Assembly (NCBI GenBank): GCA_017503375.1 | Contig: JAFVTF010000071.1 | Coordinates: 3,036-67,035 of the forward strand | Reading direction: 5' to 3' | Length of the DNA stretch: 64,000 bases | Source: Lentisphaeria bacterium | GTDB lineage: Bacteria > Verrucomicrobiota > Lentisphaeria > Victivallales > UBA1829 | Part shown: piece after piece, positions 968 to 53,978 of the stretch | How the letters are laid out: the number at the start of each line of letters is the position of its first letter | How positions within the stretch are numbered: position 1 is the first letter of the stretch | Program-made: the position numbers and the translations under genes | Notes under the pieces: model-generated | Told to the model about the DNA's origin: nothing | What the model saw: the letters and a program-made list of their open reading frames with translations, nothing else | The model's database searches: none

Positions 968-985
968 TTTTTGTTCCTTTTGTTA

Positions 986-1789
986 TTAGTTTATATCTTC
1001 ATTACCATGTTCAAACATCCATTTGCGAAAATATTCCGGAGCTTCCAATCCGGTATCGGCGATCGTATTGGAACAGACGATCACACCTTTGATTTTACCG
1101 TCCAGAAGGAAACGGTAATATAAATCCAGCTGGAATTTCATTTCATCGGAAGTGAGCGGTTTGCAATCTCCGTAACTGTAAAGATAACATCCGGCGTAAT
1201 GTTCTTTTCCGGGAGTCATGCTGATGATCCGGTTCAGATTGTTTTCTGCTTGAGCCAACTGTTCATTGTTCCAGGACCAGAAGGTGATTCCGTCGACAGC
1301 ATCCAGCCACGGAGTGTAATCAATGTCAAAAAGTCCTGCATAATAAACCAGCCACAACGATAATCTGCGGGGCGCATTGTGGAGCCGTTCAGCGATTCTG
1401 TGAAGTTCATCCGGCGTCAGACGGGCATCTTTTGTTGCCGGGCGGAACAGATCATCCAGAACACCGCCGACGATGTTCTGATATTTTTCTGCCTGCCGCA
1501 GAACTTCAGCCAGATCATCTCCGTTTTTGTCATTGCGTTTCGATGAAGCATCTCCCAGAACGGACCATATTACTTTTTTGAAATTTTTGAGTTTTTCAGA
1601 TTCTTCGTCAAAGGGAGGTTCAGGAATTCCATTGAATACAACACGGCAGCAGTTCGGAATCCCGAGATATTCCGCTCCTTCCCATGGTCCCATTCTGTTT
1701 TCTCCGGGAATTTTATATGCCGCTGCATCTCCGGTATGATGGCATCCTGCATGGTGTCCCCATATCCAGAAATGATCTTTTAGCTTCAT
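986..1789 (-). CDS. conserved hypothetical protein of an uncharacterised family (distant paralog at 45962..46984)
   Basis: 267-aa ORF with an ATG start, co-directional with and tightly packed between GH127 and the DUF1559 gene. It shares collinear motifs with the 45962..46984 product: HFWIWG/NLWVWG, GAEYLGIPN/GADYFGAKN, QNIVGGVLDD/PNIVGAMCDD, DGITFWSWN/DVINLWFWN, KIKGVIVCSN/GIVEGVVILGD. Confidence 0.7.
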   Translation of the reverse strand: MKLKDHFWIWGHHAGCHHTGDAAAYKIPGENRMGPWEGAEYLGIPNCCRVVFNGIPEPPFDEESEKLKNFKKVIWSVLGDASSKRNDKNGDDLAEVLRQAEKYQNIVGGVLDDLFRPATKDARLTPDELHRIAERLHNAPRRLSLWLVYYAGLFDIDYTPWLDAVDGITFWSWNNEQLAQAENNLNRIISMTPGKEHYAGCYLYSYGDCKPLTSDEMKFQLDLYYRFLLDGKIKGVIVCSNTIADTGLEAPEYFRKWMFEHGNEDIN

Positions 1790-1885: not shown

Positions 1886-3733
1886 TTATTTTCTCCGTAT
1901 CCAGACAGCCATATTCGTTGCCCCGCGGTTTTGCCATAAAGCGTATGGAACAGCGTAAAATTCTGTTTCCGTATATTCCGGCGGATTCGTGTGGTAAAGT
2001 TCTTCTCCGGCAAATGTTTCTCTGACCGCTTTCCCTTTGATAACGGGCGTTCCTTCCGGCAGGTCGCAATGATTTTGAATGACTTCCAGCGGCTCTTTCG
2101 TATCCAGAATCAATTCCCGGACAGGTCCTGTCTGGTCTATTTCCTCCAATGCATAAACCACCGGCCCCCGCATGATTGCGATTCTTCCAGTATTTGTCGT
2201 GACGCGCGGATTTGCATAAATCCATTCCGCAGGCATATCCAGATTTAATTCCAAAACATCTCCGGCGTTCCACTGTCTGACAATATGAAGATTCGTGATT
2301 GCTTCTCCATTGAGTTTGGCGTTCCATTTTCTGCACCAGCCCGGAATCCGGCATTTCAGAGAAAATTCACTTTCAGAAACGATCTTTATAATGATTTTTC
2401 CATCGTAAGGATAATTTCCTTCAATATCAATTTTGACATTTTTACTATTGAGATTCAGTGTTGCATGATTGGATACCGGGATATTCAATGTGATTTCATT
2501 TTCTTCATCATTGACGGAATAAATGAATTTTCCCAGCTGAGGCAGGAATCTTGAAAAACTGGTCGGACAGCAGGAGCAGTTGAACCAGGGCTGCCGTTCT
2601 TTGGAAACGACCGACGGTTTCAGGTTCTCATCCACTTCAAGATAATTGGTATAGAAGAATTTGTTTCCATCCAGACTGATTCCCGAAAGAATTCCATTAT
2701 AAATGCAGCGTTCCACTGTATCAAGATATTTTGTGTTGCCTGTAATATTGAACATACGGATTGCAAAAAGAGCAAAGCCCATTGCCGCACAGCTCTCTGC
2801 ATACATGAGTCCTCCATTGGAAAGATCATAATCCACAGAGAATTTTTCCTGAAAGAAGTAAGAACCGATTCCGCCGGTCAGATACATCTGCTTTGAAACG
2901 ATATGATCGTGAAGCCGTTCGCAGACTGCAAGAAGCGATTCATCCTGATCGATTTCCGCAAGATCCGCCATGCCGCAGCAAAGATAGATCTGTCTGACCG
3001 CATGCCCGGTCCCGGCTGTCTGTTCTCTGACTGGCACATCTGCCTGCGCATATTTCCGTGGAGCAGGATCTTTTTCCACTTCTTCATAATAGTTCGGTTC
3101 CGTTCCCCGGTCATTGATAAAATATTGAAGGAGTTTCCGGTACTCTTCTTTTTTGGTCAGACGGTAAAGTTTTGCCAGAGCAAGTTCGATCTCTTCGTGT
3201 CCGGGCCAGCCGCGGCGTTTGCCTTCCTCAAAACCGAAAACGGAGCAGAGATAATCCGCATAACGGCAGAGACAATCCAGCAGTTTTGTTTTCCCAAGCG
3301 CCTGATACCCTGCAACGGCAGCTTCGATCAGGTGTCCGGCGCAATATAATTCATGGGCATAGGAAAGATGTTTGAACCGTTCTTCCGGCTTGACAACAGT
3401 GAAATAAACATTGAGATACCCGTCCGGCTGCTGAGCAGAACAGATGAGATCAACCCATTCATCGTATATTTTTTCCAATGCCGGATCCGGATTGAGGGCG
3501 AGAGCGTAAGCCATTCCTTCCAGAACTTTTGCCACATCAGAATCCCAGAAAATATGCGGGCGGTTCGGCATCCCTTCTTTCCAGTTAAGAGCAAATGCCT
3601 GGATCCGTCCGGTGTCGATGGTTTGTTTGATACACTGTGGGATGGTTGCGGCGTAACAATTTTTCTGGCGCGGTGCCATGACGGAGTCTTTCAGCAAGAC
3701 TGATTTCAGTTCCGGTGCAGTAAATTTTTTCAT
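1886..3733 (-). CDS. glycoside hydrolase family 127 (beta-L-arabinofuranosidase-like, DUF1680)
   Basis: 615 aa. The family-typical motifs are present: HELYCAGHLIEAAVA, MYAESCAAMG and the Cys cluster WFNCSCCPTSFSRF (the GH127 Cys/Zn site). A GGAGGGAG RBS sits upstream of the ATG. Confidence 0.85.
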   Translation of the reverse strand: MKKFTAPELKSVLLKDSVMAPRQKNCYAATIPQCIKQTIDTGRIQAFALNWKEGMPNRPHIFWDSDVAKVLEGMAYALALNPDPALEKIYDEWVDLICSAQQPDGYLNVYFTVVKPEERFKHLSYAHELYCAGHLIEAAVAGYQALGKTKLLDCLCRYADYLCSVFGFEEGKRRGWPGHEEIELALAKLYRLTKKEEYRKLLQYFINDRGTEPNYYEEVEKDPAPRKYAQADVPVREQTAGTGHAVRQIYLCCGMADLAEIDQDESLLAVCERLHDHIVSKQMYLTGGIGSYFFQEKFSVDYDLSNGGLMYAESCAAMGFALFAIRMFNITGNTKYLDTVERCIYNGILSGISLDGNKFFYTNYLEVDENLKPSVVSKERQPWFNCSCCPTSFSRFLPQLGKFIYSVNDEENEITLNIPVSNHATLNLNSKNVKIDIEGNYPYDGKIIIKIVSESEFSLKCRIPGWCRKWNAKLNGEAITNLHIVRQWNAGDVLELNLDMPAEWIYANPRVTTNTGRIAIMRGPVVYALEEIDQTGPVRELILDTKEPLEVIQNHCDLPEGTPVIKGKAVRETFAGEELYHTNPPEYTETEFYAVPYALWQNRGATNMAVWIRRK

Positions 3734-3838: not shown

Positions 3839-4606
3839 ATGTTGTATGAAATTTATAACGGTGGAAGATTCATTTCCAGAGGGAAAGGGGAACACCCGAC
3901 CCGGATCATTGATACGGATGAGCTGATTTTTGTTCTTCAGGGAACCCTTGATATGTTTGAGTGCGAACAGCAGTTCAATGTCCGGAAAGGGGAATGGCTG
4001 ATCCTTCACCGTGGAAAACGGCATGGGGGCAAGGCGTTATACCCGAAAAATCTCTCCTTTTTCTGGCTTCATTTCCGGGATCTTGACGGCTGGCTTGAGA
4101 GACTCCCGCAACAAGGACAAGTGGAAAATCCCTCTGTCATTTCCGGTTACATCCAGAATTTTCTCAATGAACAGACCCGTTTGGAACCTGACAAAAATAT
4201 TTTGGATCTTCTTTTTCAGCTGATTTTTGCCGAATTGCGGCGGAAAACTGTTCCGGAACCGGACCGGACTCCTCTTGCTATCGCTGCAAAAAATTATGTT
4301 GATCTTCATTTTATGGAACCTGTCAATTTGTGTTCTGCTGCGGAAGAACTCAAGTGCAATACAGAATATCTCGGCAGATTGTTTCATCGGTGTTACGGAG
4401 AATCTTTTGTGGCTTATCTGAACCGGAAACGGATCGAACGGGCAGCAGGATATCTTGCTGATGGAGCATATTCTGTGAAAGAGATCATAGAGCTTTGCGG
4501 GTTTCGGGATCCAGCCTATTTCCGGCGGAAGTTCCGTTCCTGTTACAATCAATCTCCGGGGGAATACAGAGATAACCACAGCGGCGGACACCGTAATACT
4601 CTTTAA
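3839..4606 (+). CDS. AraC-family transcriptional regulator (cupin sensor + HTH)
   Basis: The N-terminal region is cupin-like (LIFVLQGTLDMFE...WLILHRGKRHGG). The C-terminal AraC HTH reads SVKEIIELCGFRDPAYFRRKFRSCYNQSPGEYR. It is divergent from GH127 and upstream of the 4852 operon, with an AAAGGAG RBS. Confidence 0.85.
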   Translation: MLYEIYNGGRFISRGKGEHPTRIIDTDELIFVLQGTLDMFECEQQFNVRKGEWLILHRGKRHGGKALYPKNLSFFWLHFRDLDGWLERLPQQGQVENPSVISGYIQNFLNEQTRLEPDKNILDLLFQLIFAELRRKTVPEPDRTPLAIAAKNYVDLHFMEPVNLCSAAEELKCNTEYLGRLFHRCYGESFVAYLNRKRIERAAGYLADGAYSVKEIIELCGFRDPAYFRRKFRSCYNQSPGEYRDNHSGGHRNTL

Positions 4607-4851: not shown

Positions 4852-7800
4852 ATGGTCAAGAGTTGTCTGTCTTTTGCGGCTCTCGCCGCTGTTGTTGGTT
4901 TATTCGCAAACCAGAAATTGTCGGATAAAACGATCCTGCGCATGGCTCCTATGCCGAAAGCTCCCGTTATTGATGGCAAAATCAGCACGGATGAATGGCG
5001 TTATGCATCAACAACCTACGGCGGAATATCACCTGTCAGCGGATTGATGACCCGCCGTCAGAATGATTTCCGGTTCGGATATGATGCAAACAACATTTAT
5101 CTTTCCATAACAAGTGAAATGCCGCTGGCTCCGCAGCCGTTGACTTCCGATGACCGGGTGGAATTCCGTTTTCAGGCTCCCGGAAAAACAACCCCGGTTA
5201 TCATCAATTTTGACAGTAAAGGAAAAGGAAAGATTCCTGCCGGAGTGAAAATTGCAAACAGATTCGGTATATCTCTGATGAACTCTGAACAGGGACCGTG
5301 TTGGACAACTGAAGTCGCAATTCCGCTTTCTGTTTTTGGTGTTTCAGCTGTCGAAGATGGAAAAGAATGGAAATTCCAGATGATGCGCCACTGGTCCAGT
5401 CAGAAGGAAACCGGATATTTCCACAATCCGAAATATGGAGATGGTATGGCGACATTCATCCCGGACAAAAAATCTGTGACTGTCAGTTTCGATGGATTCG
5501 GACATCATATGTATCCGGCAACGGGGAATTACAACTGGACCTACCGTGTGGAAAGCCAGCTGAATACCAACGTTCATGTTCATTCCAACTGTTTCCGTTC
5601 CGGTTTGGACGGCGCTCCCACGCTTGATATCAACAATCCGGATCTGTTCGGAAAAGAAAAGAGAATCCGGATCGGTTACAGCGTGCTGGCGGAAAAAGGC
5701 ATCAGCAAATATTTCGAGTTGTATATGATGGCCCAGTTCCCCGGAAAACCCCGTTGTCTTTACTCTCAAATCGTTGCAAATGACAGAAAAACTGTTTATT
5801 ATCAGCGTTTGATGTTCTGGGATACTTCCATTGCTCAGCGAGCCGCAACCTATAAAGATTCCGTCGGTTATCCTTACTTGAGCAGCGCATTTTATCCTTC
5901 TTACGGAAACAAACTGCGAGTGGCCGCCACATTCAATAAGAAACTGCCCATCGGTTATGCGGAAATCAACGTGCGTGATTCCAAAGGAAAAGTTCTTCAC
6001 ACATTCAAAAAATCCGCTTTCGGAAATCCTCTGAATGATTTTGAAGATCAGACGGTTCTGAAAAATCTTCCCCTGGGTGATTACACTGTAACAATGGATA
6101 CCATTGCATTGGACGGCAGAAAATTCAGCCATCAGAGAACGTTCTCCATCCGGAAATTTGCATGGCAGGGATTGAACCTCGGAAAAGACCGGGTGATCAT
6201 TCCTCCGTTCAAACCCTTGAAACACTCTTCATGGAAAAAAGAAGTCCATGCACTTATGACAGGTTATAAAATCGGAGAAGGTATCTGGAGCAAAGTGTAT
6301 GCGGAAGGTGAAAATATTCTGGCGGCTCCCATTCAGCTTTTCCTTGATGGTAAACCGGTAAAAGCCGGAAAAATCAAACTGATTTCCGAAGAAAAAGACC
6401 GCGTGGTTTATGAAATGACCTCTCAGACCGGTAAAGTGAATTTCCGGATCACGCAGGATTATGATTATGACGGATTCTGCAAACTGACCGTGAAAGTCAT
6501 TCCTCAGGGAACTGTCAAGGTGAAATCCTTTGATCTCCGCGTGCCTGTCAAAGATGAATATGTCAAATATTACATGACCCTTGATGCAAACAGGAAACGC
6601 GCTTTGGGAAAACCGGACTGGACCGTTCAGAAAGGGCAGGGCGAGCTGAGCCTTGCTTCCGGACTCCGGTACAAAGGAAGAATCCAGAACTATTTCTGGT
6701 TCGGCGATGGTCGGAAAGGGATCAGCTGGATCATTGATACCCAGAAAGGATTCACACTGGATAAAAACACCTATCCGTACAAATTTATCCGTGAAGGTAA
6801 GACCGTCACTTATATTCAGCAGATGGTGAACGTTCCGACGGAATGGGATAAACCCTGGGAATTTGAAATGGGCTTTTCTCCCACACCTGTCAAACCTCAG
6901 GCAATGGGATACCGCAGCATCTCCCAGAATATGTATGATTATCCGACCGCAAAAGGTTCCGTTGCCGCCGGTATCATGAATATTACCCAGTGGCCCCTTT
7001 CTTATTACTATCCCATCAACATGTTCCCCAATGGCGATGATACCTATTGGAAAACAATACTTGCTTCCCGCGGGAAACAAGTTACCGAAGCTCAGCGGAA
7101 AAAATGGGCGGCTGATTATTATGCAAGACATAAGGACTGGCTGCTGAAAAATGCTCCGCTGATGGATCATTCCCGCTTCAAACGGCATTTGCTTGACCGC
7201 CGGGCATACAGTGATGATTATTTCCTGATTTATCATAACCCCGCATATTATTCAAAACGCTGGGCAGAAGCGGAAATGTACAAGGCAGAATGGCTCCCGT
7301 GGGATTATCCTGTGGATGATGCTCATAACGAATATATCGCATGCCAGACACCGGAATATATTGATAAACTCATGTGGGAAATGCAGACACAGATCAAGTA
7401 TGGTTTCGACGGTATGAACTTTGACTGTTTCCCGCTGGGCGGCGGATTCAATACAGTTTCCATGAAGGCATTCCGTGAAAAACCGGGACATGTGCCCATT
7501 ATCAACAATGCCAATATGCTTCAGATTGCTTCACCGGGAATCCGTTCTGCAAAGAATCTTTTCGGTTGGCGCGAACTGATGAAACGGACTGCTCATCTGC
7601 TCTATGTCAATAACCGACTGGTGTTCGGTGTGCCCTGGGTGGAAGTTCATTCTACAAATGCAACTGTCCCCTCGGTCGCAGCATTCTGTTCCACGGTGAT
7701 CACCACCGAATGTGCTTCCAAGGGCGGACATTACTTTGACCGTTTCCCGGACAGTTACACGCTCAGTGATTTGGTCGGAGCTGCCTCCGGTGTGATTCCC

Positions 7801-8253
7801 AGACCGATTTTCTCCACTCACTCAACCACAGTTTCTGTTCCGGAACAGATCAAGACTTTGATTTCCTTCTCCTTCGCATACGCTTTGATGAACCATGTTG
7901 ACCAGGGAATTGCACGCGGTTACAAAGAATATCAGACCATGCGTGATGAAGTATTCTCTTTCGGTTACGGACGTCCGGAAAACAAGACCATTGCGTTCTA
8001 TGACAGGGAAAAGCAGCCTGTTACATGCAATGCAGAAAATATCCGTACAACACAGGTGATCCGTCCTGATGGAAAGGCTCTTCTGATGGTTGGAAATCTT
8101 GGCGGTAAGGTCAAAGCAAAGTTTGATCTCTCCGGATTGAATTACAAGAAATTCAAAATCACGGATGTTTTCACCGGAAAAGTTCTTTCGACACCGGAGA
8201 TCGAAGTCGATACCCGTGGTTATGCTTTGCTGAAAATTGAAAAAATTAACTGA
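4852..8253 (+). CDS. large secreted protein, paralog 1 of 3: N-terminal CBM9/DOMON-like module plus uncharacterised C-terminal region
   Basis: 1133 aa with a signal-peptide-like start MVKSCLSFAALAAVVGLFA. The CBM9-like pattern is PVIDGKISTDEWRYAS...FRFGYDANNIYLSI...DDRVEFRF...CWTTEVAIPLSVFG. It is collinear with the next two ORFs over its full length. Confidence 0.85.
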   Translation: MVKSCLSFAALAAVVGLFANQKLSDKTILRMAPMPKAPVIDGKISTDEWRYASTTYGGISPVSGLMTRRQNDFRFGYDANNIYLSITSEMPLAPQPLTSDDRVEFRFQAPGKTTPVIINFDSKGKGKIPAGVKIANRFGISLMNSEQGPCWTTEVAIPLSVFGVSAVEDGKEWKFQMMRHWSSQKETGYFHNPKYGDGMATFIPDKKSVTVSFDGFGHHMYPATGNYNWTYRVESQLNTNVHVHSNCFRSGLDGAPTLDINNPDLFGKEKRIRIGYSVLAEKGISKYFELYMMAQFPGKPRCLYSQIVANDRKTVYYQRLMFWDTSIAQRAATYKDSVGYPYLSSAFYPSYGNKLRVAATFNKKLPIGYAEINVRDSKGKVLHTFKKSAFGNPLNDFEDQTVLKNLPLGDYTVTMDTIALDGRKFSHQRTFSIRKFAWQGLNLGKDRVIIPPFKPLKHSSWKKEVHALMTGYKIGEGIWSKVYAEGENILAAPIQLFLDGKPVKAGKIKLISEEKDRVVYEMTSQTGKVNFRITQDYDYDGFCKLTVKVIPQGTVKVKSFDLRVPVKDEYVKYYMTLDANRKRALGKPDWTVQKGQGELSLASGLRYKGRIQNYFWFGDGRKGISWIIDTQKGFTLDKNTYPYKFIREGKTVTYIQQMVNVPTEWDKPWEFEMGFSPTPVKPQAMGYRSISQNMYDYPTAKGSVAAGIMNITQWPLSYYYPINMFPNGDDTYWKTILASRGKQVTEAQRKKWAADYYARHKDWLLKNAPLMDHSRFKRHLLDRRAYSDDYFLIYHNPAYYSKRWAEAEMYKAEWLPWDYPVDDAHNEYIACQTPEYIDKLMWEMQTQIKYGFDGMNFDCFPLGGGFNTVSMKAFREKPGHVPIINNANMLQIASPGIRSAKNLFGWRELMKRTAHLLYVNNRLVFGVPWVEVHSTNATVPSVAAFCSTVITTECASKGGHYFDRFPDSYTLSDLVGAASGVIPRPIFSTHSTTVSVPEQIKTLISFSFAYALMNHVDQGIARGYKEYQTMRDEVFSFGYGRPENKTIAFYDREKQPVTCNAENIRTTQVIRPDGKALLMVGNLGGKVKAKFDLSGLNYKKFKITDVFTGKVLSTPEIEVDTRGYALLKIEKIN

Positions 8254-8276
8254 TAATATATAAAGGAAAACAGAAA

Positions 8277-11200
8277 ATGCAGAAAACTCTTTTTGCTCTG
8301 TTGGCAGCAACGGCTGTCGGTGCATTCGGAAATACGATTTCCAATGAAACACTGCTGCGCTTTGCGCCCATGCCGAAGGCTCCTGCCATTGATGGAAAAA
8401 TCGGCTATGATGAATGGAAGTATGCTTCCACTACGTTCGGCGGGATTTCTCCGAAAACAAAGTTGATGACCCGCCGTCAGAATGATTTCCGGTTCGGATA
8501 TGACCAGAAGTATGTTTACTTCTCCATTACAAGCGAAATTCCTCTTCCGCCGCAGTCTCTTTCCGGCGATGATAAAGTGGAATTTCAGCTTCTGCCTCCC
8601 GGAAAAACAAAACCTGTTGTGATTGCCTTTGATATCAACCGGAAAGGAACCATTCCTGCCGGAACCATCATTGCTGACAGTATTGGTTACGCAACCATGA
8701 ATGCAGAACAGGGAAAATGCTGGATCGTTGAAGTTGCAATTCCTTATTCCGTTCTCGGTGTATCCGGATTCAAAGATGGCGAAAAATGGGGATTCCAGAT
8801 GATCCGCCACTGGTCCAGCCAGAAAGAAACCGGATATTTCCACCTTCCCAAAAAAGCCGGAGAAATGGCAACGTTCATTCCCGATACCAAAGCTCCGATC
8901 ATCAGTTTTGACGGCTTCGGTCTCCTGATGTATCAGGCAACCGGAAACTATAACTGGACTTACCGCATTGAAAATACGCAAAAGCAGAAAATCGGTGTTC
9001 ATTCCAACAGTTACCGTTCCGGTGTCAATGCTGCGGCAACTCTGGATATCAACAATCCGGATCTTTTCGGAAAAGAAGAAAAAGTTGCGATCGGTTACAG
9101 TCAGACGATCGAACCCGGAAAGACTGGTTTGTTCCAGCTGCACATGATGGCTCAGTTCCCTGGAAAACCCCGCTTGCTTTATTCTCTTCTGAAAGGATAT
9201 AACAATGTTGTCTATTATAAACGCACCATGTTCTGGGATGTCCTTCTTTCCCACAGAGCAGCTGTTTATAAAGATGAAAAAGGACTGCCTTATCTCAATG
9301 CCGGTTATTATCCTTCTTACGGAGAAAAACTCCGTGTGGCAGCTTCTTTCAATAAGAAATTGCCCATTGCTAATGTAACGATCACTGTCAGAAATTCCAA
9401 AGGAAAAGTGCTGCATACCTTTGCCAGATCCGGTTTCGGTCGTCCGTTGGAAGATTTTGAAGATCAGACAGTTCTCAAAAATCTTCCTCTGGATGATTAT
9501 ACTGTGACTATGGAATCCATGGATATGAACGGGAAGAAATATGTTCATGTGAGAACTTTCTCCATTGCCAAGTTCCCGTGGCAGGGATTGAATCTCGGGA
9601 AAGAACGGATCATTATTCCGCCGTTTAAACCTTTGAAAGTGGATAAGAAAAAGCAGGAAGTCCACGCATTGCTGACCGGTTATAAAATCGGCAGCGGTAT
9701 CTGGGATGCAATTTATGCCGATGGAGAAAATATTCTTGCGGCTCCCATTCAGTTTGTGCTTGATGGAAAGCCTGTTCCTGCAGGAAAAACCAAACTGATC
9801 TCTGCAGAAAAGGACCGCGTTGTTTATGAAACAACCGTCAAAAACGGAAAAGTCAAATTTATCCTGAATCAAGATTATGATTACGATGGATTCTGTAAAT
9901 TGACAACCAAAGTTGTTCCTGAAGGACCTGTCAAAATTTCTTCTTTCCAGTTGTTGATTCCCATGAAGGCCGAATATGCAAAATACTATTCTGCCCTTGG
10001 CTTCGGAAACAGGACTCGCGGACAGGGAAAACCAGATACGACCATTCCCGCAGGGCAAGGGGAACTCAAGTTGAATATCAATCAGCGGAAGGGTTTTATC
10101 CTGAATTATTTCTGGTTCGGGACTGCTTACAAAGGTTTCAGCTGGATCATTGACACCCAGAAAGGGTTCGCTCTTGACAAGAAAAAATACCCGCACCGTA
10201 TGGAACGGAAGGGAAATACAGTTCTCTTTATGCAGGACATTGTGAATATGCCGACCATTTGGGATAAACCGTGGGAATTCACGTTCGGCTTCTCACCCAC
10301 ACCTGTGAAACCCATCAATAAGAACTATCGCAGTCTTTCCACCTGGATGTATGACTATAAGCCTGCCAAAGGTTCTGACAAAGCCAATATGTCGATCCAG
10401 CAGCTGCCTCTTGGAGAGTATTATGATATTCAGGCGACACCTCCCGGGGGAGAAAGTTACTATCTGGACATTGTCAGAAACCGCGGCAGATTTGTTCCCC
10501 CGGCAGAACGCAAAAAAATGGCAGATGAGTACATTGCCAAACACAAAGACTGGATTCTGAAGTATGCACCGTTGGCAGATTTTGCTCTGCTTCGGAAAAT
10601 GTTTGAAGATCAGCGCGTTTGGGGGGATCATTACTTCCTTGTTTACAATGACCCTGCACATTATTCCTATCGCTGGAAAGAAGCTGAAATGTATAAGGCT
10701 GAGTGGCTTCCGTGGGATTATCCGGTAGATGATGCTCTGAACGAATATATCGCATGCAAAACACCGCAGTATATTGACAAAATGCTTTATGATATGCGGC
10801 GGTACGCCCGCTGGGGAATCGAAGGCATGAACTTTGACTGCTTCCCGCTGGGCGGCGGAAGAAATACCGTTTCCCGTGGAGCTTTCCGTGAAGAACCCGG
10901 TCCTGTGCCTTTGATTTACAATCACAATATGCTTCAGATCGTTCCTTACGGAATCGTCCCCTGCCGGGATCTTTTCGGCTGGCGTGAACTTACCAAGAGA
11001 ACTGCACACATGCTTTACACCGAAGGACGGCTTGTTCACGGGGTGCCCTGGGTGGAACTCCACTCCACAGATTCCGCAGTTCCGGCTGTTACCGCATTTT
11101 GTTCTACTGTGATTACAACCGAATGTGCATCTCATGGCGATCACTATTTTGATCGCTTCCCGGAAAGTTATGTGTTGAGCGATCTCGCCGGACTTCAGGC

Positions 11201-11663
11201 AGGAGTTATGCCCCGTCCCATCGTTTCAACCCGTTCTTCCAAACTGCCCCGTGCGGAGCAGGTCAAATCTCTGATCTCATGGTCCTTTGCCAACGGATTG
11301 ATGACACATTGTGACCAGGGCGTGCTGAGAGGACAGAAAGATTTCCAGGTCATGCGTGATGAAATCTTCAGTTTCGGTTTCGGCAGACCTCAGAACAAGA
11401 CCATTGCGTTCTATGACAAGGAAAAACAGCCCATCACCTGCAATGCCGCAAAAGTCCGCACAACTCAGGTGATCCGTCCGGATGGAAAAGCTCTTCTGAT
11501 GATCGGTAATACCGGAGATAAAGTCAAAGCCAAATTTGATCTTTCCGGTTTGAAGTATGGAAAATATAAAGTGACGGATGTCTTTACCGGAAAGGTTCTG
11601 ACAAGTACAGAAATTGAACTGCCCCGTCATGGTTATGCTCTTTGGAAGATCGAAAAGAACTGA
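8277..11663 (+). CDS. large secreted protein, paralog 2 of 3 (CBM9-like N-terminus plus uncharacterised region)
   Basis: 1128 aa, starting 23 nt after paralog 1. Signal-like start MQKTLFALLAATAVGAFG. It aligns end to end with paralogs 1 and 3, for example the shared YKAEWLPWDYPVDDA.NEYIA and GMNFDCFPLGGG. Confidence 0.85.
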   Translation: MQKTLFALLAATAVGAFGNTISNETLLRFAPMPKAPAIDGKIGYDEWKYASTTFGGISPKTKLMTRRQNDFRFGYDQKYVYFSITSEIPLPPQSLSGDDKVEFQLLPPGKTKPVVIAFDINRKGTIPAGTIIADSIGYATMNAEQGKCWIVEVAIPYSVLGVSGFKDGEKWGFQMIRHWSSQKETGYFHLPKKAGEMATFIPDTKAPIISFDGFGLLMYQATGNYNWTYRIENTQKQKIGVHSNSYRSGVNAAATLDINNPDLFGKEEKVAIGYSQTIEPGKTGLFQLHMMAQFPGKPRLLYSLLKGYNNVVYYKRTMFWDVLLSHRAAVYKDEKGLPYLNAGYYPSYGEKLRVAASFNKKLPIANVTITVRNSKGKVLHTFARSGFGRPLEDFEDQTVLKNLPLDDYTVTMESMDMNGKKYVHVRTFSIAKFPWQGLNLGKERIIIPPFKPLKVDKKKQEVHALLTGYKIGSGIWDAIYADGENILAAPIQFVLDGKPVPAGKTKLISAEKDRVVYETTVKNGKVKFILNQDYDYDGFCKLTTKVVPEGPVKISSFQLLIPMKAEYAKYYSALGFGNRTRGQGKPDTTIPAGQGELKLNINQRKGFILNYFWFGTAYKGFSWIIDTQKGFALDKKKYPHRMERKGNTVLFMQDIVNMPTIWDKPWEFTFGFSPTPVKPINKNYRSLSTWMYDYKPAKGSDKANMSIQQLPLGEYYDIQATPPGGESYYLDIVRNRGRFVPPAERKKMADEYIAKHKDWILKYAPLADFALLRKMFEDQRVWGDHYFLVYNDPAHYSYRWKEAEMYKAEWLPWDYPVDDALNEYIACKTPQYIDKMLYDMRRYARWGIEGMNFDCFPLGGGRNTVSRGAFREEPGPVPLIYNHNMLQIVPYGIVPCRDLFGWRELTKRTAHMLYTEGRLVHGVPWVELHSTDSAVPAVTAFCSTVITTECASHGDHYFDRFPESYVLSDLAGLQAGVMPRPIVSTRSSKLPRAEQVKSLISWSFANGLMTHCDQGVLRGQKDFQVMRDEIFSFGFGRPQNKTIAFYDKEKQPITCNAAKVRTTQVIRPDGKALLMIGNTGDKVKAKFDLSGLKYGKYKVTDVFTGKVLTSTEIELPRHGYALWKIEKN
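11352..11593 (+). repeat. near-identical 242-nt tract shared with 14928..15169 (inside paralogs 2 and 3)
   Basis: Aligning by hand gives 7 mismatches in 242 nt. A similarly protein-conserved segment (9361..9640 vs 12934..13213) gives 32 mismatches in 280 nt. Confidence 0.7.
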
Positions 11664-11737
11664 GGTTTTGTTTTATATACCGGAGTTTTTGACCGTTTAC
11701 TGAAAAAATGTAAAAAACTCCGGAAACAGAATTTATC

Positions 11738-11782
11738 ATATCTGTAAAAAAAATATATAATATTGCATTTTTTTACAGATAT
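11738..11782. repeat. perfect 15-bp AT-rich inverted repeat in the paralog 2/3 intergenic region
   Basis: The arm ATATCTGTAAAAAAA (11738..11752) pairs with TTTTTTTACAGATAT (11768..11782). The 15-nt loop contains TATATAAT. The repeat lies about 70 nt upstream of the 11850 start. Confidence 0.6.
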
Positions 11783-11849
11783 GGTTCTTGTTTTTCTCAG
11801 TATAATGGAGTATAATAACCGGGAATATTATTTTGAGGAGATTTCTCGA

Positions 11850-14800
11850 ATGAAAAAATGTATTTTTGCCGCATTTGCGGCAGTCATGAGCAGTGTCGTT
11901 GGAAACACACTTTCCGATGAGACATTGCTTCGTTTTGCACCGATGCCGAAAATCCCTGTAATTGATGGGAAAATTGGTTATGACGAATGGAAATATGCTT
12001 CCACTACGTTCGGCGGGATCTCTCCGAAAACAAAATTGATGACATTCCGTCAAAATGATTTCCGGTTCGGTTATGATGCAAAAAATGTTTATTTCTCCAT
12101 TACAAGTGAAATCCCTCTTGCGCCGCAGTCTCTTGATAAAGATGATTGTGTGGAGTTTCAGCTTTTGCCTCCGGGAAAAACAAAACCTTTTGTGATCCAA
12201 TATGATATTACCGGAAAAGGCCAAGTTCCTGCCGGGGCAAAATTGAAAAACTCTATCGGTTATGCAATCATGAATGCAGAGCAGGGGAAATGCTGGATTA
12301 CTGAAATTGCAATTCCTTATTCTGCTTTGGGCGTGACCGGATTCAAAGACGGGGAAAAATGGGGACTTCAGATGATCCGTCACTGGTCCAGTCAGAAGGA
12401 AACCGGATACTTCCATCTTCCGAAAAAAGCCGGGGAAATGGCAACCTTCATTCCTGACTCCCAGGCTCCGATTATCAGTTTTGACGGATTTGGACAGCTG
12501 ATGTATCAGAATGCCGGAAACTATATTTGGACCTACCGTGTTGAGAACACTCAGAAACACAAATTCGGAGTGATCTCAAAAAGTTACCGTGCAGGTGTGA
12601 GCGGTGCTGCAACCCTGGATATCAATAATCCGGACCTGCTTGGAACTTCTGTGAAAGCCGCAATCGGCGGAAATGCCATGGTCGAACCCGGGAAAACGCA
12701 TTTGTTCCAGCTGCACATGGTGGCCCAGTTTGCCGGAAAGCCCCGTCTGCTTTATTCTCATTTGAAAGGATACAACAATATTGATTATTATAAACGAGTC
12801 ATGTTCTGGGACACTTCCATTTCTCAGAGAGCTGCTGTTTATAAAGATGAGATCGGTTTGCCTTATCTCAACGCCGGTTATTATCCGAACTATGGAGAAT
12901 TGCTCCGTGTTTCTGCTTCATTCAACAAAAAACTGCCCATTGCAAATGTCACGATCACCGTGAGAAATTCCAAGGGGAAAGTCCTGCATACCTTTGCCCG
13001 TGCCGGTTTCGGACGTCCTGTGGAAGATTTTGAAGATCAGACTGTTCTGAAAAATCTCCCGGTTGATGATTATACCGTGACCATGGAATCCATGGATATG
13101 AAAGGGAAGAAATATTCTCATGTGAGAACGTTCTCCATTGCAAAGTTCCCGTGGCAGGGATTGAATCTCGGAAAGGAACGGATCATTATTCCGCCGTTCA
13201 AACCCTTGAAGCTGGATCAGAAAAAACAGGAAATCCATGCTCTCATGACCGGTTATAAGCTCGGCGGGAAGGGAATCTGGGATGCAGTTTATGCCGATGG
13301 CGAAAATATTCTTGCAGCTCCCATTCAGTTTGTTCTTGACGGAAAGCTGATTCCCGCCGGAAAACTGAAATTGATTGAATCTGCCAAAGACCGTATCATT
13401 TATGAATCTTCCGTTTCCTCCGGAAAAGTCAAATTCATTCTGAATCAGGAATATGATTATGACGGTTTCTGTAAACTGAATGTAAAAGTTATTCCTCAGG
13501 GACCTGTCAAAGTGAAATCATTTGAATTGCGTGTCCCCATGAAAGATGAATACGCAAAATATTATGCAACGATTCGCGGAAACCGTCCCCGCGCACAGGG
13601 AAAACCGGATACAACCATCCCGGCAGGGCAGGGCGTGCTTGATATCAAAGGTGCTTTGCAGGAAAAAGGACGGGTCATGAATTATTTCTGGTTCGGAACC
13701 ACTTACAAAGGTTTCAGCTGGATCATCGACACACAGAAAGGTTTCTCCATCGAAAAGACAAAATATCCTCACCGGATGGAACGCAAAGGAAAAACTGTCA
13801 CTTTCATTCAGGATATTGTGAATAAACAGACAATTTGGGATAAACCCTGGGAATTTACCTTCGGATTCTCTCCCACACCGGTGAAGCCCATAAACAAAAA
13901 TTACCGAACTCTTACCACATGGATGTATGATTATCCCAAAGCAAAAGGGTCTGATAAATGCAACATGCAAGTGGAACAGCTCCCGCTCGGAGATTATTAT
14001 GATGTTCAGGCAGTTCCCGATGGCGATGATTATTATTACAGACAGATCATTGCCAGCCGCGGAAAAGTTATTTCCGAAGCAGAACGGAATAAAATGGCGG
14101 ATGAGTACATCGCAAAGCATAAAGATTGGATTCTGAGAAATGCACCGCTGGCAGATTTCAGCCTGATCCGCAAGCTGTTCACCACCAAGCGTGCATGGGG
14201 CGATGATTATTTTCTGATGTATAACGATCCCGCATATTATTCCTACCGCTGGAAAGAAGCGGAAATGTACAAAGCAGAATGGCTTCCTTTTGATTATCCT
14301 GTGGATGATGCACTGAATGAATATGTTGCAAACAAAACACCGGAATATATTGATAAGATGCTTTATGAAATGCGCCGTTATGTCCGCTGGGGACTCGATG
14401 GCATGAACTTTGATTGTTTCCCGCTTGGCGGCGGAAGAAATATGATTTCCATGGGCGCATTCCGTGAAAAACCGGGCAGAGTACCTTTGATGTACAATCA
14501 CAATATGCTTCAGTTTGTGCCGGAAGGAATTATTTATGCCAGAAACTTCTTCGGCTGGCGCGAACTCACCAAACGCACAGCTCACATGCTTTACACCGAA
14601 GGGAAACTTATTCATGGAGTCCCATGGGTGGAACTTCACGCAACCGATGCCGCTGTTCCTGCAGTTGCCGCTTTCTGTTCTACTGTGATTACAATGGAAT
14701 GCGGTTCCATGGGCGGAAACTATTATGATCGCTTCCCCGACAGTTATGTGCTGAGTGATCTTGCCGGAACACAGGCTGGAGTTGTGCCCCGGACGATCGT

Positions 14801-15239
14801 TTCAACCCATTCTTCCAAACTTTCCCGCGCAGAACAGGTCAGATCTTTGATCAGCTGGTCCTTTGCCAACGGGATGCTGAATCATACAGATCAGGGCGTA
14901 TTGAAAAATCAGAAAGATTACCGCATTATGCGTGATGAAATCTTCAGTTTCGGTTTCGGCAGACCTCAGAACAAGACCATTGCGTTCTATGACAGGGAAA
15001 AACAGCCCATCACCTGCAATACCCCAAAAGTCCGCACAACTCAGGTGATTCGTCCGGATGGAAAAGCTCTTCTGATGATCGGTAATACCGGAGATAAAGT
15101 CAAAGCCAAATTTGATCTTTCCGGTTTGAAGTATGGCAAATATAAAGTGACGGATCTGTTTACCGGAAAAGAAATCGTAAAACCGGAAATTGAACTGCCC
15201 CGTCATGGCTATGCCCTTTGGAAAATAGAAAAACTTTAA
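11850..15239 (+). CDS. large secreted protein, paralog 3 of 3 (CBM9-like N-terminus plus uncharacterised region)
   Basis: I chose ATG 11850 (MKKCIFAAFAAVMSSVVG, with a GAGGAG RBS 9 nt upstream) over the track start 11763. That start would add 29 AT-rich non-homologous residues. The protein is very similar to paralog 2 throughout. Confidence 0.8.
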   Translation: MKKCIFAAFAAVMSSVVGNTLSDETLLRFAPMPKIPVIDGKIGYDEWKYASTTFGGISPKTKLMTFRQNDFRFGYDAKNVYFSITSEIPLAPQSLDKDDCVEFQLLPPGKTKPFVIQYDITGKGQVPAGAKLKNSIGYAIMNAEQGKCWITEIAIPYSALGVTGFKDGEKWGLQMIRHWSSQKETGYFHLPKKAGEMATFIPDSQAPIISFDGFGQLMYQNAGNYIWTYRVENTQKHKFGVISKSYRAGVSGAATLDINNPDLLGTSVKAAIGGNAMVEPGKTHLFQLHMVAQFAGKPRLLYSHLKGYNNIDYYKRVMFWDTSISQRAAVYKDEIGLPYLNAGYYPNYGELLRVSASFNKKLPIANVTITVRNSKGKVLHTFARAGFGRPVEDFEDQTVLKNLPVDDYTVTMESMDMKGKKYSHVRTFSIAKFPWQGLNLGKERIIIPPFKPLKLDQKKQEIHALMTGYKLGGKGIWDAVYADGENILAAPIQFVLDGKLIPAGKLKLIESAKDRIIYESSVSSGKVKFILNQEYDYDGFCKLNVKVIPQGPVKVKSFELRVPMKDEYAKYYATIRGNRPRAQGKPDTTIPAGQGVLDIKGALQEKGRVMNYFWFGTTYKGFSWIIDTQKGFSIEKTKYPHRMERKGKTVTFIQDIVNKQTIWDKPWEFTFGFSPTPVKPINKNYRTLTTWMYDYPKAKGSDKCNMQVEQLPLGDYYDVQAVPDGDDYYYRQIIASRGKVISEAERNKMADEYIAKHKDWILRNAPLADFSLIRKLFTTKRAWGDDYFLMYNDPAYYSYRWKEAEMYKAEWLPFDYPVDDALNEYVANKTPEYIDKMLYEMRRYVRWGLDGMNFDCFPLGGGRNMISMGAFREKPGRVPLMYNHNMLQFVPEGIIYARNFFGWRELTKRTAHMLYTEGKLIHGVPWVELHATDAAVPAVAAFCSTVITMECGSMGGNYYDRFPDSYVLSDLAGTQAGVVPRTIVSTHSSKLSRAEQVRSLISWSFANGMLNHTDQGVLKNQKDYRIMRDEIFSFGFGRPQNKTIAFYDREKQPITCNTPKVRTTQVIRPDGKALLMIGNTGDKVKAKFDLSGLKYGKYKVTDLFTGKEIVKPEIELPRHGYALWKIEKL
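14928..15169 (+). repeat. partner of the 11352..11593 near-identical tract
   Basis: See 11352..11593. Confidence 0.7.
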
Positions 15240-15269: not shown

Positions 15270-16046
15270 ATGAAAAAATCATTTTTGATCGCCGCAGCTG
15301 TTTTCGCCGCAAGTTTTGCCGGAGCCGCAGAATATCTTTTTGATTCACAGGCCGATTGTGAACTTCAATCCAGGAAAAAATTGGAATTCAAGAACGGCGC
15401 TCACGTCTTGAAAGGTGCTTGTCACTTCTGGACAACCAAGATGTTCAAACATGATCCTGCAAAGAAATATACCATTTCAGCAGAAATTATGACGGATTGC
15501 AAGGAAAAAGTTTCCGGATTGACATTTGGGCTTGTTTATTTCGATGACAAAGGAAGATTCATCCAAACCCGTGAATATCTGGTAGATCCCAAAGGATTCA
15601 CAGAACTTGCCAAGAAGATGGAACCCACTGACACCACAATTGTGATCAAGACCCCGGCAGGATTCAAGAAACACTCCGGCTGGCCCTATGTGCTTGCATT
15701 TGAAGCGAAAGATGATCTTTCCGATCTTCCGAATCCCAAGGTTACGACTAAAATCAAGAAAATGGATATTACGCCGGAGACCATTACTTTGACTCTTGAA
15801 AAACCGACTTTTGCTTCTTATCCTGCAGGAACTAAAGTCAGACTCCATTATTCACTTCAGTTCTATCATCCGGTAAATATCAATAGGTTCTATGAACATC
15901 CGACTGCCCAGTGGAGAAAGATCGGTGGAACCATCAAGATTCCCCGCGGTGTGAAAAATTTCAAACCTGCAGTGATCTATTATGACTGGAAAAAGAATAC
16001 CACCCGGTATGTCTATCTCCGCAACTTCAAGCTCATTGAGGAATAA
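15270..16046 (+). CDS. secreted hypothetical protein, possibly a CBM-like jelly-roll
   Basis: Signal peptide MKKSFLIAAAVFAASFAGAAE. The beta-rich sequence (HVLKGACHFWTTKMFKHDPAKKYTISAEIM...FGLVYFDDKGRFI) is reminiscent of CBM4/9-type modules. It starts 30 nt after paralog 3, with an AAAGGAA RBS. Confidence 0.65.
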   Translation: MKKSFLIAAAVFAASFAGAAEYLFDSQADCELQSRKKLEFKNGAHVLKGACHFWTTKMFKHDPAKKYTISAEIMTDCKEKVSGLTFGLVYFDDKGRFIQTREYLVDPKGFTELAKKMEPTDTTIVIKTPAGFKKHSGWPYVLAFEAKDDLSDLPNPKVTTKIKKMDITPETITLTLEKPTFASYPAGTKVRLHYSLQFYHPVNINRFYEHPTAQWRKIGGTIKIPRGVKNFKPAVIYYDWKKNTTRYVYLRNFKLIEE

Positions 16047-16053
16047 CTGAAAA

Positions 16054-17190
16054 ATGAAAAAGATCCAAACTGCTGTTTATTATTTCCCGAACTATCATGT
16101 GGATCCCCGGAATGAGGCCATTCATGGTACCGGGTGGACAGAATGGGAACTCATGAAGCTGGCACGCCCCCGTTTTGAGGGACATGATCAGCCGAAAGTT
16201 CCCGCCTGGGGATATGAAGATGAAGCAGACCCGCAGGTCATGGCAAAAAAAATCGATGTCGCCGTGGAACATGGTGTGGATGCTTTTGTTTTTGACTGGT
16301 ATTGGTATGAAGGTCCTTATCTGGAACGCTGCCTGAAGGAAGGATTCCTCGGCGCGCCCAATAATGACAAAATGAAATTTGCTCTCATGTGGGCAAATCA
16401 TGACTGGAAGAATTTTCATCCGGGCGGACGGGATACGAAAAATTATCCCATCAACTTCCCCTGGAGTGTCCGGAGAGAAACTGTCGGTTTTGTTTGGGAT
16501 TATATCATTGAAAACTTTATGACCAAACCCAATTACTGGCGTGTCGGTGGACTTCCTTATTTCTCCATTTACGCAGTCAACCGTTTTATCGGCCAGATGG
16601 GCGGCGTGGAGGCAACCGCAGAAGTTCTGGCAGATTTCCGTGCAAAAGCAGTCAAAGCCGGATTGCCCGGTATTCATATCGGCGGAATCTGGTTCGATGT
16701 GCTTGACAGTCATCCGGTTTACTCCGAGTGTCCTCAGGCAGACTGGGCAAACAAACTCGGCTTCTCAAGCTACACCAGCTACAATAACTGCTGTACAACC
16801 GATGAATGGTTCCGGGATTTTCCGAACATTGATTACGACAAAGCCGCAGAAGAGTATTATCAGATCGCCCGGAAGGCAATGACGACTCTTCCTGCACCGT
16901 ATCATCCGGTTGTGACTGCAGGTTGGGATTCCACCCCGCGCTGTATTCAGTCTGAAGTCTATGATAAGAAACCGGGTTATCCCTATCTCGATGTGATGCA
17001 GCCGACTCCCGAAAAATTCGGAAATGCTGTTGCTGAAACAGTGAAGATTTTGAAGCAGTATGCAGCCGATGATCCCATTTTCTTCATTAACGCATGGAAT
17101 GAATGGACCGAAGGCAGTTATCTTGAACCGGATACCCGGTTCGGAATGGCTGTTCTGGAAGCTTTGAAGAAAGAACTTTCCTTACAATAA
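16054..17190 (+). CDS. WbsX-family protein (Glyco_tran_WbsX / GH99-like fold)
   Basis: The N-terminus VYYFPNYHVDPRNEAIHGTGWTEWELMKLARPRFEGHDQPKVPAWGYEDEADPQVMAKKIDVAVEHGVDAFVFDWYWY is the characteristic WbsX-family signature. There is no signal peptide. Confidence 0.75.
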   Translation: MKKIQTAVYYFPNYHVDPRNEAIHGTGWTEWELMKLARPRFEGHDQPKVPAWGYEDEADPQVMAKKIDVAVEHGVDAFVFDWYWYEGPYLERCLKEGFLGAPNNDKMKFALMWANHDWKNFHPGGRDTKNYPINFPWSVRRETVGFVWDYIIENFMTKPNYWRVGGLPYFSIYAVNRFIGQMGGVEATAEVLADFRAKAVKAGLPGIHIGGIWFDVLDSHPVYSECPQADWANKLGFSSYTSYNNCCTTDEWFRDFPNIDYDKAAEEYYQIARKAMTTLPAPYHPVVTAGWDSTPRCIQSEVYDKKPGYPYLDVMQPTPEKFGNAVAETVKILKQYAADDPIFFINAWNEWTEGSYLEPDTRFGMAVLEALKKELSLQ

Positions 17191-17214
17191 AATTTACAGA
17201 AAAGAGGTTTTATT

Positions 17215-17997
17215 ATGAAAAGTATGAGTGTAAGACAAGACTGTTTTACCTTGATCGAGCTTCTGGTTGTGATTGCGATCATTGCAATTCTTGCCGGAAT
17301 GCTGCTGCCTGCATTGAACAATGCCAGAGAAGCGGGAAGAAAATCATCCTGTATGAACAATCTGAAATCAATCGGAACGGCTCAGGCAATGTATTCCGCA
17401 GATCATAATGATTGGATTCTTCCCTGCAGAATGCCGAACTATGAAGATTCTCAGGACCAGTGGTTTATGGTTCTTTCCGGTGTCGACAGTTCCGGTGTGA
17501 AAAGCAAAAGATATGCCGGATGGGGAACCGCTTTTTATGGACTGAAGCAGCGTAAAGGAACTTATTATTGTTCTTCAGCCAATCCTCAGAAGTCTTATGG
17601 TTGTACGACATATGGAATCAACCGTTTTTTGCTTGGTGATGATGGCACAAATTTCTTTGCCAGAAAAACTTCTTGCGTGACATCCGCAACTTCAACCGTT
17701 TTTGCAACAGACACCGCTCATACCGGAACATACCGTATGCATGATGCCGGTTCTTTTGCATTCCGGCATGGAGCAGGGGACCCCGGAGATGGTGTCCGTG
17801 GACTTGGGTCCGGTTACAGCTTAAAAAGCGGCGGTTCTGGTTATACCCCTGCAGGAAATACAAATGTTCTTTACTTTGATGGTCATGTCTCCCCTCTTAC
17901 TCTAAAACAGGTAACGATTCTTGATGGTGGAGTCAGCACCCATAAAGTTTTAAAGACTGGGTATAATATGGATCAGAAAAGTCAGCCTTGGAACTGA
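17215..17997 (+). CDS. DUF1559-family GspG-like pseudopilin-type protein
   Basis: N-terminus [52 protein letters not shown], with a C-terminal [10 protein letters not shown] motif. It is the last gene of the 4852..17997 plus-strand run. Confidence 0.85.
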
Positions 17998-18060: not shown

Positions 18061-18089
18061 TTGACAAATTATTTGATTTATGCTAAATT
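18061..18089 (+). promoter_or_regulatory. sigma70-like promoter (TTGACA-17-TAAATT with an upstream TGc)
   Basis: TTGACA at 18061..18066, a 17-nt spacer ending in TGC, and TAAATT at 18084..18089. This supports ATG 18131 as the gene start rather than the track start 18080. Confidence 0.45.
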
Positions 18090-18130
18090 GTTTGAGAGAA
18101 AATAGAACTTTCAAAAAAGGATTTTTTTAT

Positions 18131-35369: not shown

Positions 35370-35387
35370 TAACGCAGGAGAAAGTTT

Positions 35388-36191: not shown

Positions 36192-36205
36192 TCAGGAGGT
36201 GCAGT

Positions 36206-40963: not shown

Positions 40964-40980
40964 GGGTGGTGTTCTTTTTT

Positions 40981-53975: not shown

Positions 53976-53978
53976 AAA

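Follow-up and report, generated by a model that had tools for sequence, protein, structure and literature searches.

Three tandem genes and their products

Three large genes lie head to tail on the forward strand of a 64,000-nucleotide stretch of DNA (the window) from a gut Lentisphaeria bacterium (assembly GCA_017503375.1, contig JAFVTF010000071.1, positions 3,036 to 67,035). The original prediction described their products (paralogs 1, 2 and 3) as collinear, each with a signal-like N-terminus, and this was borne out (Table 1). We consider it fairly likely that the products are secreted enzymes of six domains, belonging to an uncharacterised glycoside hydrolase (GH)-like family and acting by a retaining mechanism, with a catalytic core predicted to resemble that of clan GH-D and with a highly conserved Asp and Glu as the candidate catalytic pair.

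The paralogs aligned nearly without gaps over ~1127 residues. Paralog 1 was the most diverged, as expected, with 64.4% identity to paralog 2 and 62.6% to paralog 3 compared to 79.1% between paralogs 2 and 3. A protein from a Lentisphaeria bacterium metagenome-assembled genome (MAG; IKB25_09095, P0012) has a 100% identity to paralog 1. Synonymous divergence (dS) among the three was 0.95-1.45 with a nonsynonymous to synonymous ratio (dN/dS) of 0.15-0.22 (Nei-Gojobori), therefore the paralogs date from old duplications and have remained intact under purifying selection, and an assembly artefact or decaying copies were rejected for the array on the same values. The frame of paralog 3 extends back to a TTG at 11763 (11763-15239); the ATG at 11850 was favoured by alignment to the other paralogs and to homologs. 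Short hydrophobic signal-like N-termini, read from the sequence by eye, were found one per protein (MVKSCLSFAALAAVVGLFA/NQ, MQKTLFALLAATAVGAFG/NT and MKKCIFAAFAAVMSSVVG/NT), and all three paralogs are predicted to be secreted. The six conserved blocks quoted in the prediction were all present in the paralogs.

Table 1. Positions in the window of the tandem genes, the predicted domains and candidate residues of their products, and the neighbouring genes.
Feature	Position	Strand	Remarks
AraC-family regulator	3839-4606	+	245 bp upstream of paralog 1; Pfam HTH_18 (1.2e-20), HTH_AraC, AraC_binding
Paralog 1	4852-8253	+	1133 amino acids; clade A
Paralog 1, candidate residues D858 and E953	7423-7425; 7708-7710	+	equivalents of D854/E949 of paralog 2
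Paralog 2	8277-11663	+	1128 amino acids; clade B; protein chosen for modelling
Paralog 2, signal-like N-terminus, residues 1-18	8277-8330	+	sequence reading; low-pLDDT helix 2-15 in model
Paralog 2, CBM9-like beta-sandwich, residues 21-202	8337-8882	+	DSSP; module HMM
Paralog 2, two Ig-like beta-sandwich domains, residues 208-320 and 339-430	8898-9566	+	DSSP of model
Paralog 2, beta-supersandwich, residues 433-680	9573-10316	+	matches PF19543 positions 320-600; holds D537
Paralog 2, (beta/alpha)8 barrel, residues 700-1035	10374-11381	+	DSSP strand/helix order; Foldseek
Paralog 2, D854, candidate nucleophile	10836-10838	+	directly after barrel strand 4 (850-853), GMNFD/CF
Paralog 2, E949, candidate general acid/base	11121-11123	+	two residues past barrel strand 6 (944-947), VITTE
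Paralog 2, Greek-key beta-sandwich, residues 1041-1127	11397-11657	+	DSSP; Melibiase_C match
Spacer between paralogs 2 and 3	11664-11849	+	186 bp, AT-rich; inverted repeats and promoter-like site
Paralog 3	11850-15239	+	1129 amino acids; clade B
Paralog 3, candidate residues D855 and E950	14412-14414; 14697-14699	+	equivalents of D854/E949 of paralog 2
Predicted secreted protein, 258 amino acids	15270-16046	+	no Pfam or PDB match
WbsX-family protein (PF14307)	16054-17190	+	E 2.1e-53
Prepilin-type N-methylation/DUF1559 pseudopilin-like protein	17215-17997	+	SBP_bac_10 29 bits; N_methyl 21.5 bits
GH78-like six-hairpin protein (Bac_rhamnosid6H)	18080-19735	+	E 5.7e-18
Second AraC-family regulator	19735-20607	+	Pfam; present in L001

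Predicted architecture and candidate catalytic residues

The structure of paralog 2 was modelled with AlphaFold2 from a 65-sequence family alignment. The full-length model had a predicted local distance difference test score (pLDDT) of 91.9 and a predicted template-modelling score (pTM) of 0.90, and the core (residues 430-1128) modelled alone had a pLDDT of 95.0 and a pTM of 0.95. Secondary structure assignment with DSSP resolved six domains behind the signal segment: a beta-sandwich resembling carbohydrate-binding module family 9 (CBM9), two immunoglobulin (Ig)-like domains with weak CopC and bMG3 Pfam matches at best, a beta-supersandwich, a (beta/alpha)8 barrel whose strands 1 and 2 are separated by a helical insertion, and a C-terminal Greek-key beta-sandwich. 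Melibiase_C matched this last domain in paralog 2 (23.7 bits, cut-off 22.9; residues 1069-1125) and fell below the cut-off in paralog 3 (21.2 bits), and relatives matched GLGE_C and Malt_amylase_C at the same position.

A Foldseek search of the core against the PDB ranked GH36 enzymes first. The best match was FpGalNase (8x1b/9ayu; E 4.5e-16, template-modelling (TM) score 0.40-0.44, probability 1.00), and AgaSK (2yfn), 2xn0, SpAga (6phu) and AgaA (4fnt) were also recovered, with the GH36 chains spanning E 4.5e-16 to 1e-11 and TM 0.37-0.44. GH97 (8wg0), GH129 (5opq/5wzn), GH31 (7qqh/5dl0/8t7z), GH27 (4nx0; TMt 0.48) and GH13 followed. Approximately 300 columns aligned to LacZ chains and to the galactose-mutarotase-related protein 3dcd, which fits a mutarotase-like beta-supersandwich. 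The probability was 1.00 throughout, yet because identity was ~10% and the root-mean-square deviation >9 Å, we read these matches as similarity of fold and architecture, not as family membership. The full-length search returned mostly low-TM GH2 matches and was uninformative; the core alone gave a usable ranking. A TIM barrel with a conserved acidic pair, which the original prediction had proposed to look for in the part of the proteins it could not assign, was located in the C-terminal ~700 amino acids by the combination of AlphaFold2, Foldseek and the homolog alignment described below.

Conservation was assessed, in paralog 2 numbering, over 146 of the best 150 homologs (out of 16,733 representatives) down to ~20% identity. 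D537, D854, R903 and R908 were present in all 146 homologs, E949 in 145 and H929 in 144, followed by W810 and Y790 (141 each), T931 (140), D834 (139) and E809 (138), and all of these residues are retained in the three paralogs. Conserved catalytic-type residues, the lack of which had been raised in advance as a possible objection, are therefore found across the homologs. DSSP of the model placed D854, H929 and E949 at the C-terminal ends of barrel strands 4, 5 and 6, respectively, with H929 ending strand 5 (925-929). The block GMNFDCFPLGGG comprises strand 4 plus D854 and VPWVE.HST comprises strand 5 plus H929 and T931, and the block YKAEWLPWDYPVDDA.NEY carries E809 and W810. D537 is carried by YDYDGFCKL, in the supersandwich.

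The C-terminal ends of barrel strands 4-6 are the catalytic positions in GH27, GH31, GH36 and GH66. Retaining clan GH-D enzymes pair an Asp on strand 4 with a strand-6 acid, and where the second acid is a Glu the layout is that of GH66. In the mechanism we propose, the CBM9-like module and the two Ig-like spacers would precede a clan GH-D-like catalytic core, in which D854 would act as the nucleophile and E949 as the general acid/base of a retaining double displacement, with H929, E809 and D537 of the supersandwich helping to shape the sugar pocket. Identity between the paralogs reached its minimum at residues 701-800 (46-49% for paralog 1 compared to paralog 2 or 3), which form the insertion between barrel strands 1 and 2. 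Differences in specificity would be expected there and, since this insertion is the most divergent part, the paralogs probably take related but different glycan linkages.

The same proteins could alternatively be non-catalytic pseudo-enzymes for glycan binding or surface display, with a barrel that binds carbohydrate and a pseudopilin as partner. The CBM9-like and Ig-like modules, the DUF1559 pseudopilin and small secreted protein that are often adjacent, and the lack of any reported activity for the family would suit such a role. We regard it as unlikely, however, given that the catalytic ends of strands 4, 6 and 5 retain their Asp, Glu and His in 144-146 of the 146 homologs at ~20% identity, as is typical of active enzymes, and given the dN/dS values among the paralogs.

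The CBM9-like call on the N-terminus stood through relatives and not through a direct match. Neither CBM9_1 (PF06452) nor CBM9_2 (PF16011) matched the isolated module of any paralog at E<=10. Distant family members carry CBM9_1 or CBM9_2 N-terminally at a position that maps to residues 38-203 of paralog 2. A hidden Markov model (HMM) built from residues 21-205 of the close subfamily matched P0067 (54-222; 48.6 bits), P0064 (50-211; 39.5 bits), P0061 (27-186; 31.9 bits) and P0066 (30-191; 24.9 bits). These matches overlap the Pfam CBM9 matches in the same proteins (CBM9_1) and the alignment mapping agrees, which supports homology of the module to CBM9 domains, by position and statistics and transitively only. 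Its role in binding is putative.

Relation to GH123, DUF6067, clan GH-D and GH66

PF19543 ("GH123_N", formerly DUF6067) was the sole Pfam family above threshold in all three paralogs (42.6, 36.0 and 42.4 bits for paralogs 1, 2 and 3 compared to a gathering cut-off of 22), and no NCBIfam match was found for them. The Pfam match covers residues ~430-690 (436-643 in paralog 1) and only positions ~320-600 of the 969-position model, and 42 of 43 diverse relatives also match the family. Going by the Pfam and NCBI labels alone, the three proteins would be GH123-type beta-N-acetylgalactosaminidases using substrate-assisted catalysis, and genuine GH123-clan proteins do match PF19543 too. Sequences of this clan (~609 amino acids), retrieved via the published DSSM_2 fragment (Sumida et al., 2024; PMC11087588, Supplementary Data 1), contained GH123_cat (PF13320) at 78-90 bits plus Glyco_hydro_123_N_2. 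They met PF19543 at positions 189-313 only, a stretch that does not overlap the one matched by the window proteins. GH123_cat/DUF4091 (PF13320) and PF22680 had no match at E<=1 in any paralog, and GH123_cat was not found in the 43 diverse relatives. GH123 is defined by a catalytic DE motif, a consecutive Asp-Glu at the end of barrel strand 4 (Sumida et al., PMC11087588). This motif is absent from paralog 2, in which D854 is followed by C855, and among the 146 homologs the following residue is N (95), C (23), D (18) or E (2). An hhalign comparison of the family core to the GH123 group-1 alignment gave a probability of 0.1%, and no GH123 chain was among the top 50 Foldseek PDB matches of the core.

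The likeness to GH123 (CpNga123, BvGH123 and NgaP; groups 1-3 of Sumida et al.) therefore consists of the Pfam label and the combination of a beta-sandwich with a TIM barrel. Because the PF19543 match lies at other positions and both GH123_cat and the DE motif are missing, the window proteins appear, from their sequences, not to be GH123 enzymes; this assignment is largely refuted and retains very little probability. The "GH123" label on these proteins is an artefact created by a Pfam model that is long and spans several domains. PF19543 as a whole meets GH123-clan proteins at positions 189-313 and DUF6067-type proteins elsewhere (P0331, P0415, P0447 and P0438 compared to the paralogs). PF19543/IPR045711 is in use as a GH123 marker for metagenome annotation (PMC13355591), and on the matches described here it will mislabel proteins like these. 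The annotation in need of correction concerns proteins that match positions 320-600 and are without everything that defines GH123.

A closer relative may be DSSM_1, a protein of 1038 amino acids that was "not assigned" to a family and is reported to have five domains, of which only domain 2 is like the GH123 N-terminal domain, and no DE motif (PMC11087588). Its first 399 amino acids matched PF19543 positions 2-337 with 409 bits, which marks DSSM_1 as a canonical DUF6067 protein. The two are collinear with respect to the model, DSSM_1 residue 398 corresponding to position 337 and paralog 2 residue 432 to position 323, and the window proteins would therefore represent a divergent branch of the PF19543/DUF6067 sphere with a different N-terminal third. 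Shared features are the supersandwich above the gathering score, a multi-domain layout (~1000 amino acids in DSSM_1), a TIM barrel and the missing DE motif. In contrast to PF19543, the first ~430 amino acids of the window proteins (CBM9-like and two Ig-like domains) replace positions 1-320, their barrel is not detected by Pfam, and the motifs EMYKAEW and GMNFDCF set them apart as a Lentisphaerota/Kiritimatiellia subfamily of their own.

Clan GH-D (GH27, GH31, GH36), GH97 and GH129 have the beta-supersandwich, (beta/alpha)8 barrel and C-terminal beta-sandwich that are seen in the model, and the invariant Asp past strand 4 and conserved acid past strand 6 of the window family would correspond to the clan GH-D pair. 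The window proteins could be very divergent members of GH36/clan GH-D (of the alpha-galactosidase or alpha-N-acetylgalactosaminidase type) and no separate family, given that GH36 enzymes are the top structural matches and Melibiase_C is marginally above its cut-off in paralog 2. We consider this improbable. Melibiase (PF02065), GH36N and GH36C Pfam domains were found in none of the paralogs or the 43 diverse members. A PDB sequence search (phmmer) and a family-profile search retrieved no GH36 chain and only marginal Ig-like matches (such as CopC and RbmA). The window family also lacks the Lys of the K-x-D motif, has a Glu and not an Asp as the putative acid/base on strand 6, and carries ~430 extra N-terminal residues.

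GH66 enzymes use a strand-4 Asp and a strand-6 Glu, and their barrel is flanked by N- and C-terminal beta-sandwich domains. The window family has a pattern compatible with that of GH66 (dextranase/cycloisomaltooligosaccharide glucanotransferase (CITase), 3WNM) in conservation and topology, with no GH66 chain in the top 50 Foldseek matches and no sequence similarity apparent. In the model, the core is built like GH36/clan GH-D with a D...E pair of GH66 type. The same fold could also serve another chemistry, be it transglycosylation or cyclisation (GH66 CITase), elimination of the alpha-glucan-lyase type (GH31) or phosphorolysis, since such activities occur in families of this fold. The invariant R903 and R908, which have no assigned role, could be accommodated in this way. 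The barrel of DSSM_1 was likened to the GH66 CITase 3WNM (PMC11087588). Nothing specific favours another chemistry, however, and predicted secretion speaks against a phosphorylase, so we give these activities a small chance.

Several observations count against a retaining, clan GH-D-like enzyme. No characterised family member was found and literature searches on DUF6067 were empty, and DSSM_1 is itself listed as "not tested" (PMC11087588). No Pfam catalytic family matched the barrel in the paralogs or the 43 diverse relatives, and an hhalign comparison to a vertebrate GH27 alignment (human GLA seed), a shallow profile, gave no match. The TM to GH36 is just ~0.4 at ~10% identity, the K-x-D motif of GH27/36 is replaced by N/Y-x-D in the 146-homolog alignment, and the proposed equivalence of D854/E949 to the GH36 catalytic residues has strand topology as its sole basis.

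With these points weighed, the proteins are very probably enzymes with a TIM-barrel core, a secreted retaining glycosidase remains our preferred explanation, and we see the array as a solid candidate new GH family. The prediction could not place the conserved blocks in a CAZy family, and no characterised GH or polysaccharide lyase family claimed the proteins in the Pfam, NCBIfam and PDB searches. Its description of the family as undescribed did not hold, since the proteins already fall in the PF19543/DUF6067 sphere; the family is catalogued, and uncharacterised rather than undiscovered. We advance more tentatively, as a possibility that does not quite command our belief, that the array contains founding members of a new CAZy GH family allied to clan GH-D/GH66 with its own signature (Y/N-x-D, H-x-T, E). 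This family would have a specificity outside the existing families, would be spread across the PVC (Planctomycetes-Verrucomicrobia-Chlamydiae) group and mis-annotated as GH123, and its tandem paralogs would split one complex rhamnose- or arabinose-containing glycan by linkage. Pectin, gum arabic, ulvan and mucin as substrates are guesses. New here are the GH123 label artefact, the predicted GH36/clan GH-D-like core with its GH66-type D...E pair, and an array that varies in copy number and has expanded more than once.

Family distribution, array evolution and gene neighbourhood

Clustered at 50% identity, the representatives retrieved by an exhaustive profile search numbered 16,733 at E<=1e-3, and 2,640 of them reached E<=1e-30. 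If the proteins are active, a function would be gained for a family of thousands of clusters. Nearly all of the best 150 of the 16,733 were ~1000-1400 amino acids long, with matches spanning the whole profile or the greater part of it. In a collection of 5.8 billion proteins the homologs came from Lentisphaeria or Victivallales MAGs and bore the names "hypothetical", "DUF6067 family protein" or "glycoside hydrolase domain-containing protein". Sampled members came from Lentisphaerota, Kiritimatiellia and one Phycisphaeraceae MAG, many of them from ruminant guts. A scan of GTDB species genomes with EMYKAEW and GMNFDCF identified 25 loci, many of them also from ruminant guts and all in Lentisphaerota apart from one Kiritimatiellia MAG, a taxonomic picture that applies to the close subfamily only as the scan used the closer alignment set.

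A distance tree of close homologs separated clade A (paralog 1-like) from clade B (paralog 2/3-like). The window contains one A copy and two B copies, compared to a single B copy alongside a pair of A copies sharing 85% identity in L001, a locus of a Victivallales MAG (GCA_045639325.1). From these compositions an A-B pair came first, with the third copy arising independently in the two lineages. Copy number ranged from one to four per locus, with four tandem copies in a Lentisphaeria MAG from roe deer caecum (RGIG3871; L009, 1006-15023) compared to three in the window. Diversification by duplication, as had been proposed, agrees with both the paralog and the copy-number evidence, and these arrays of one to four copies offer a natural series for the study of specificity divergence after duplication. 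At least five copies were also present on separate contigs (L014, L017, L019, L021, L024) of a goat-rumen Victivallales MAG (RGIG3456).

The array is headed by an AraC-family regulator gene, as is also the case in L005 and L006, and is followed on the same strand by the genes listed in Table 1, with intergenic gaps along the cluster of 23, 186, 30, 7, 24 and 82 bp. The predicted neighbours (AraC head, CBM-like secreted protein, WbsX and DUF1559 proteins) were in place, although the 258-amino-acid secreted protein had no Pfam match. The cluster was expected to end at the DUF1559 gene; it continues with the GH78-like gene and a second AraC-family regulator. That the genes form an operon is suggested by strand and spacing only. 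The second AraC gene starts (19735) directly at, or within, the GH78-like stop codon, which suggests translational coupling of the regulator to the cluster end. Co-expression of the paralogs with the WbsX-like, GH78-like, small secreted and pseudopilin proteins under AraC control is probable.

A ~259-amino-acid secreted protein with no Pfam match, one or more WbsX proteins (two copies in L004) and a GH78-like protein also lie downstream of the array or large gene in L001, L004 and L005. L005, found in an ENA metagenome, represents the window locus itself. The array or large gene in these three loci has GH2 or GH39 genes and AraC regulators nearby, and L001 and L005 also have an annotated N_methyl/DUF1559 pseudopilin. 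In a more distant locus with a single copy, the pseudopilin and the small protein were all that was retained. Literature searches on WbsX plus glycoside hydrolase found nothing. This neighbourhood suggests the breakdown of a complex glycan, and the region is a dense glycan-degradation neighbourhood. On the opposite strand the cluster is flanked by a GH127 beta-L-arabinofuranosidase-like gene (1886-3733, -; E 5e-94) and a GH2 gene (20618-22189, -), and a DUF4838 protein is encoded further upstream in L005.

The gap between paralogs 1 and 2 is merely 23 bp compared to the 186 bp between paralogs 2 and 3. The longer spacer contains a perfect 16-nt inverted repeat (11737-11752/11768-11783), a 19-nt imperfect inverted repeat (11680-11698/11705-11723) and a sigma-70-like site (11733-11761) with a 10/12 match that is no better than chance for the region. 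Promoter and terminator scans were likewise at chance level only. The spacer could be an internal promoter/operator for paralog 3 or a duplication scar.

Pseudopilins (DUF1559/N_methyl) recurred near GH genes, in the window at 248-1789 (-) and 15270-17997 (+) and elsewhere in L001 (17992-19569), L004 (4747-5475) and L002 (13417-15015), often beside a small protein (~235-270 amino acids) with no Pfam match. The small proteins encoded at 15270 (258 amino acids) and at 986 (267 amino acids, beside the other pseudopilin) are unrelated (BLASTP E 46). Six co-directional open reading frames at 34692-42262 (+; 225, 267, 1060, 263, 277 and 348 amino acids) had no Pfam match at E<=1e-3. The 1060-amino-acid frame at 36206 was considered as a fourth paralog and rejected, being unrelated to the triplicated family. 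Finally, two adjacent open reading frames at 52314-55532 (+; 553 and 517 amino acids) had sub-threshold N-terminal neutral/alkaline ceramidase matches (28-29 bits; cut-off 32) and could represent a further case of diverged hydrolases in tandem.

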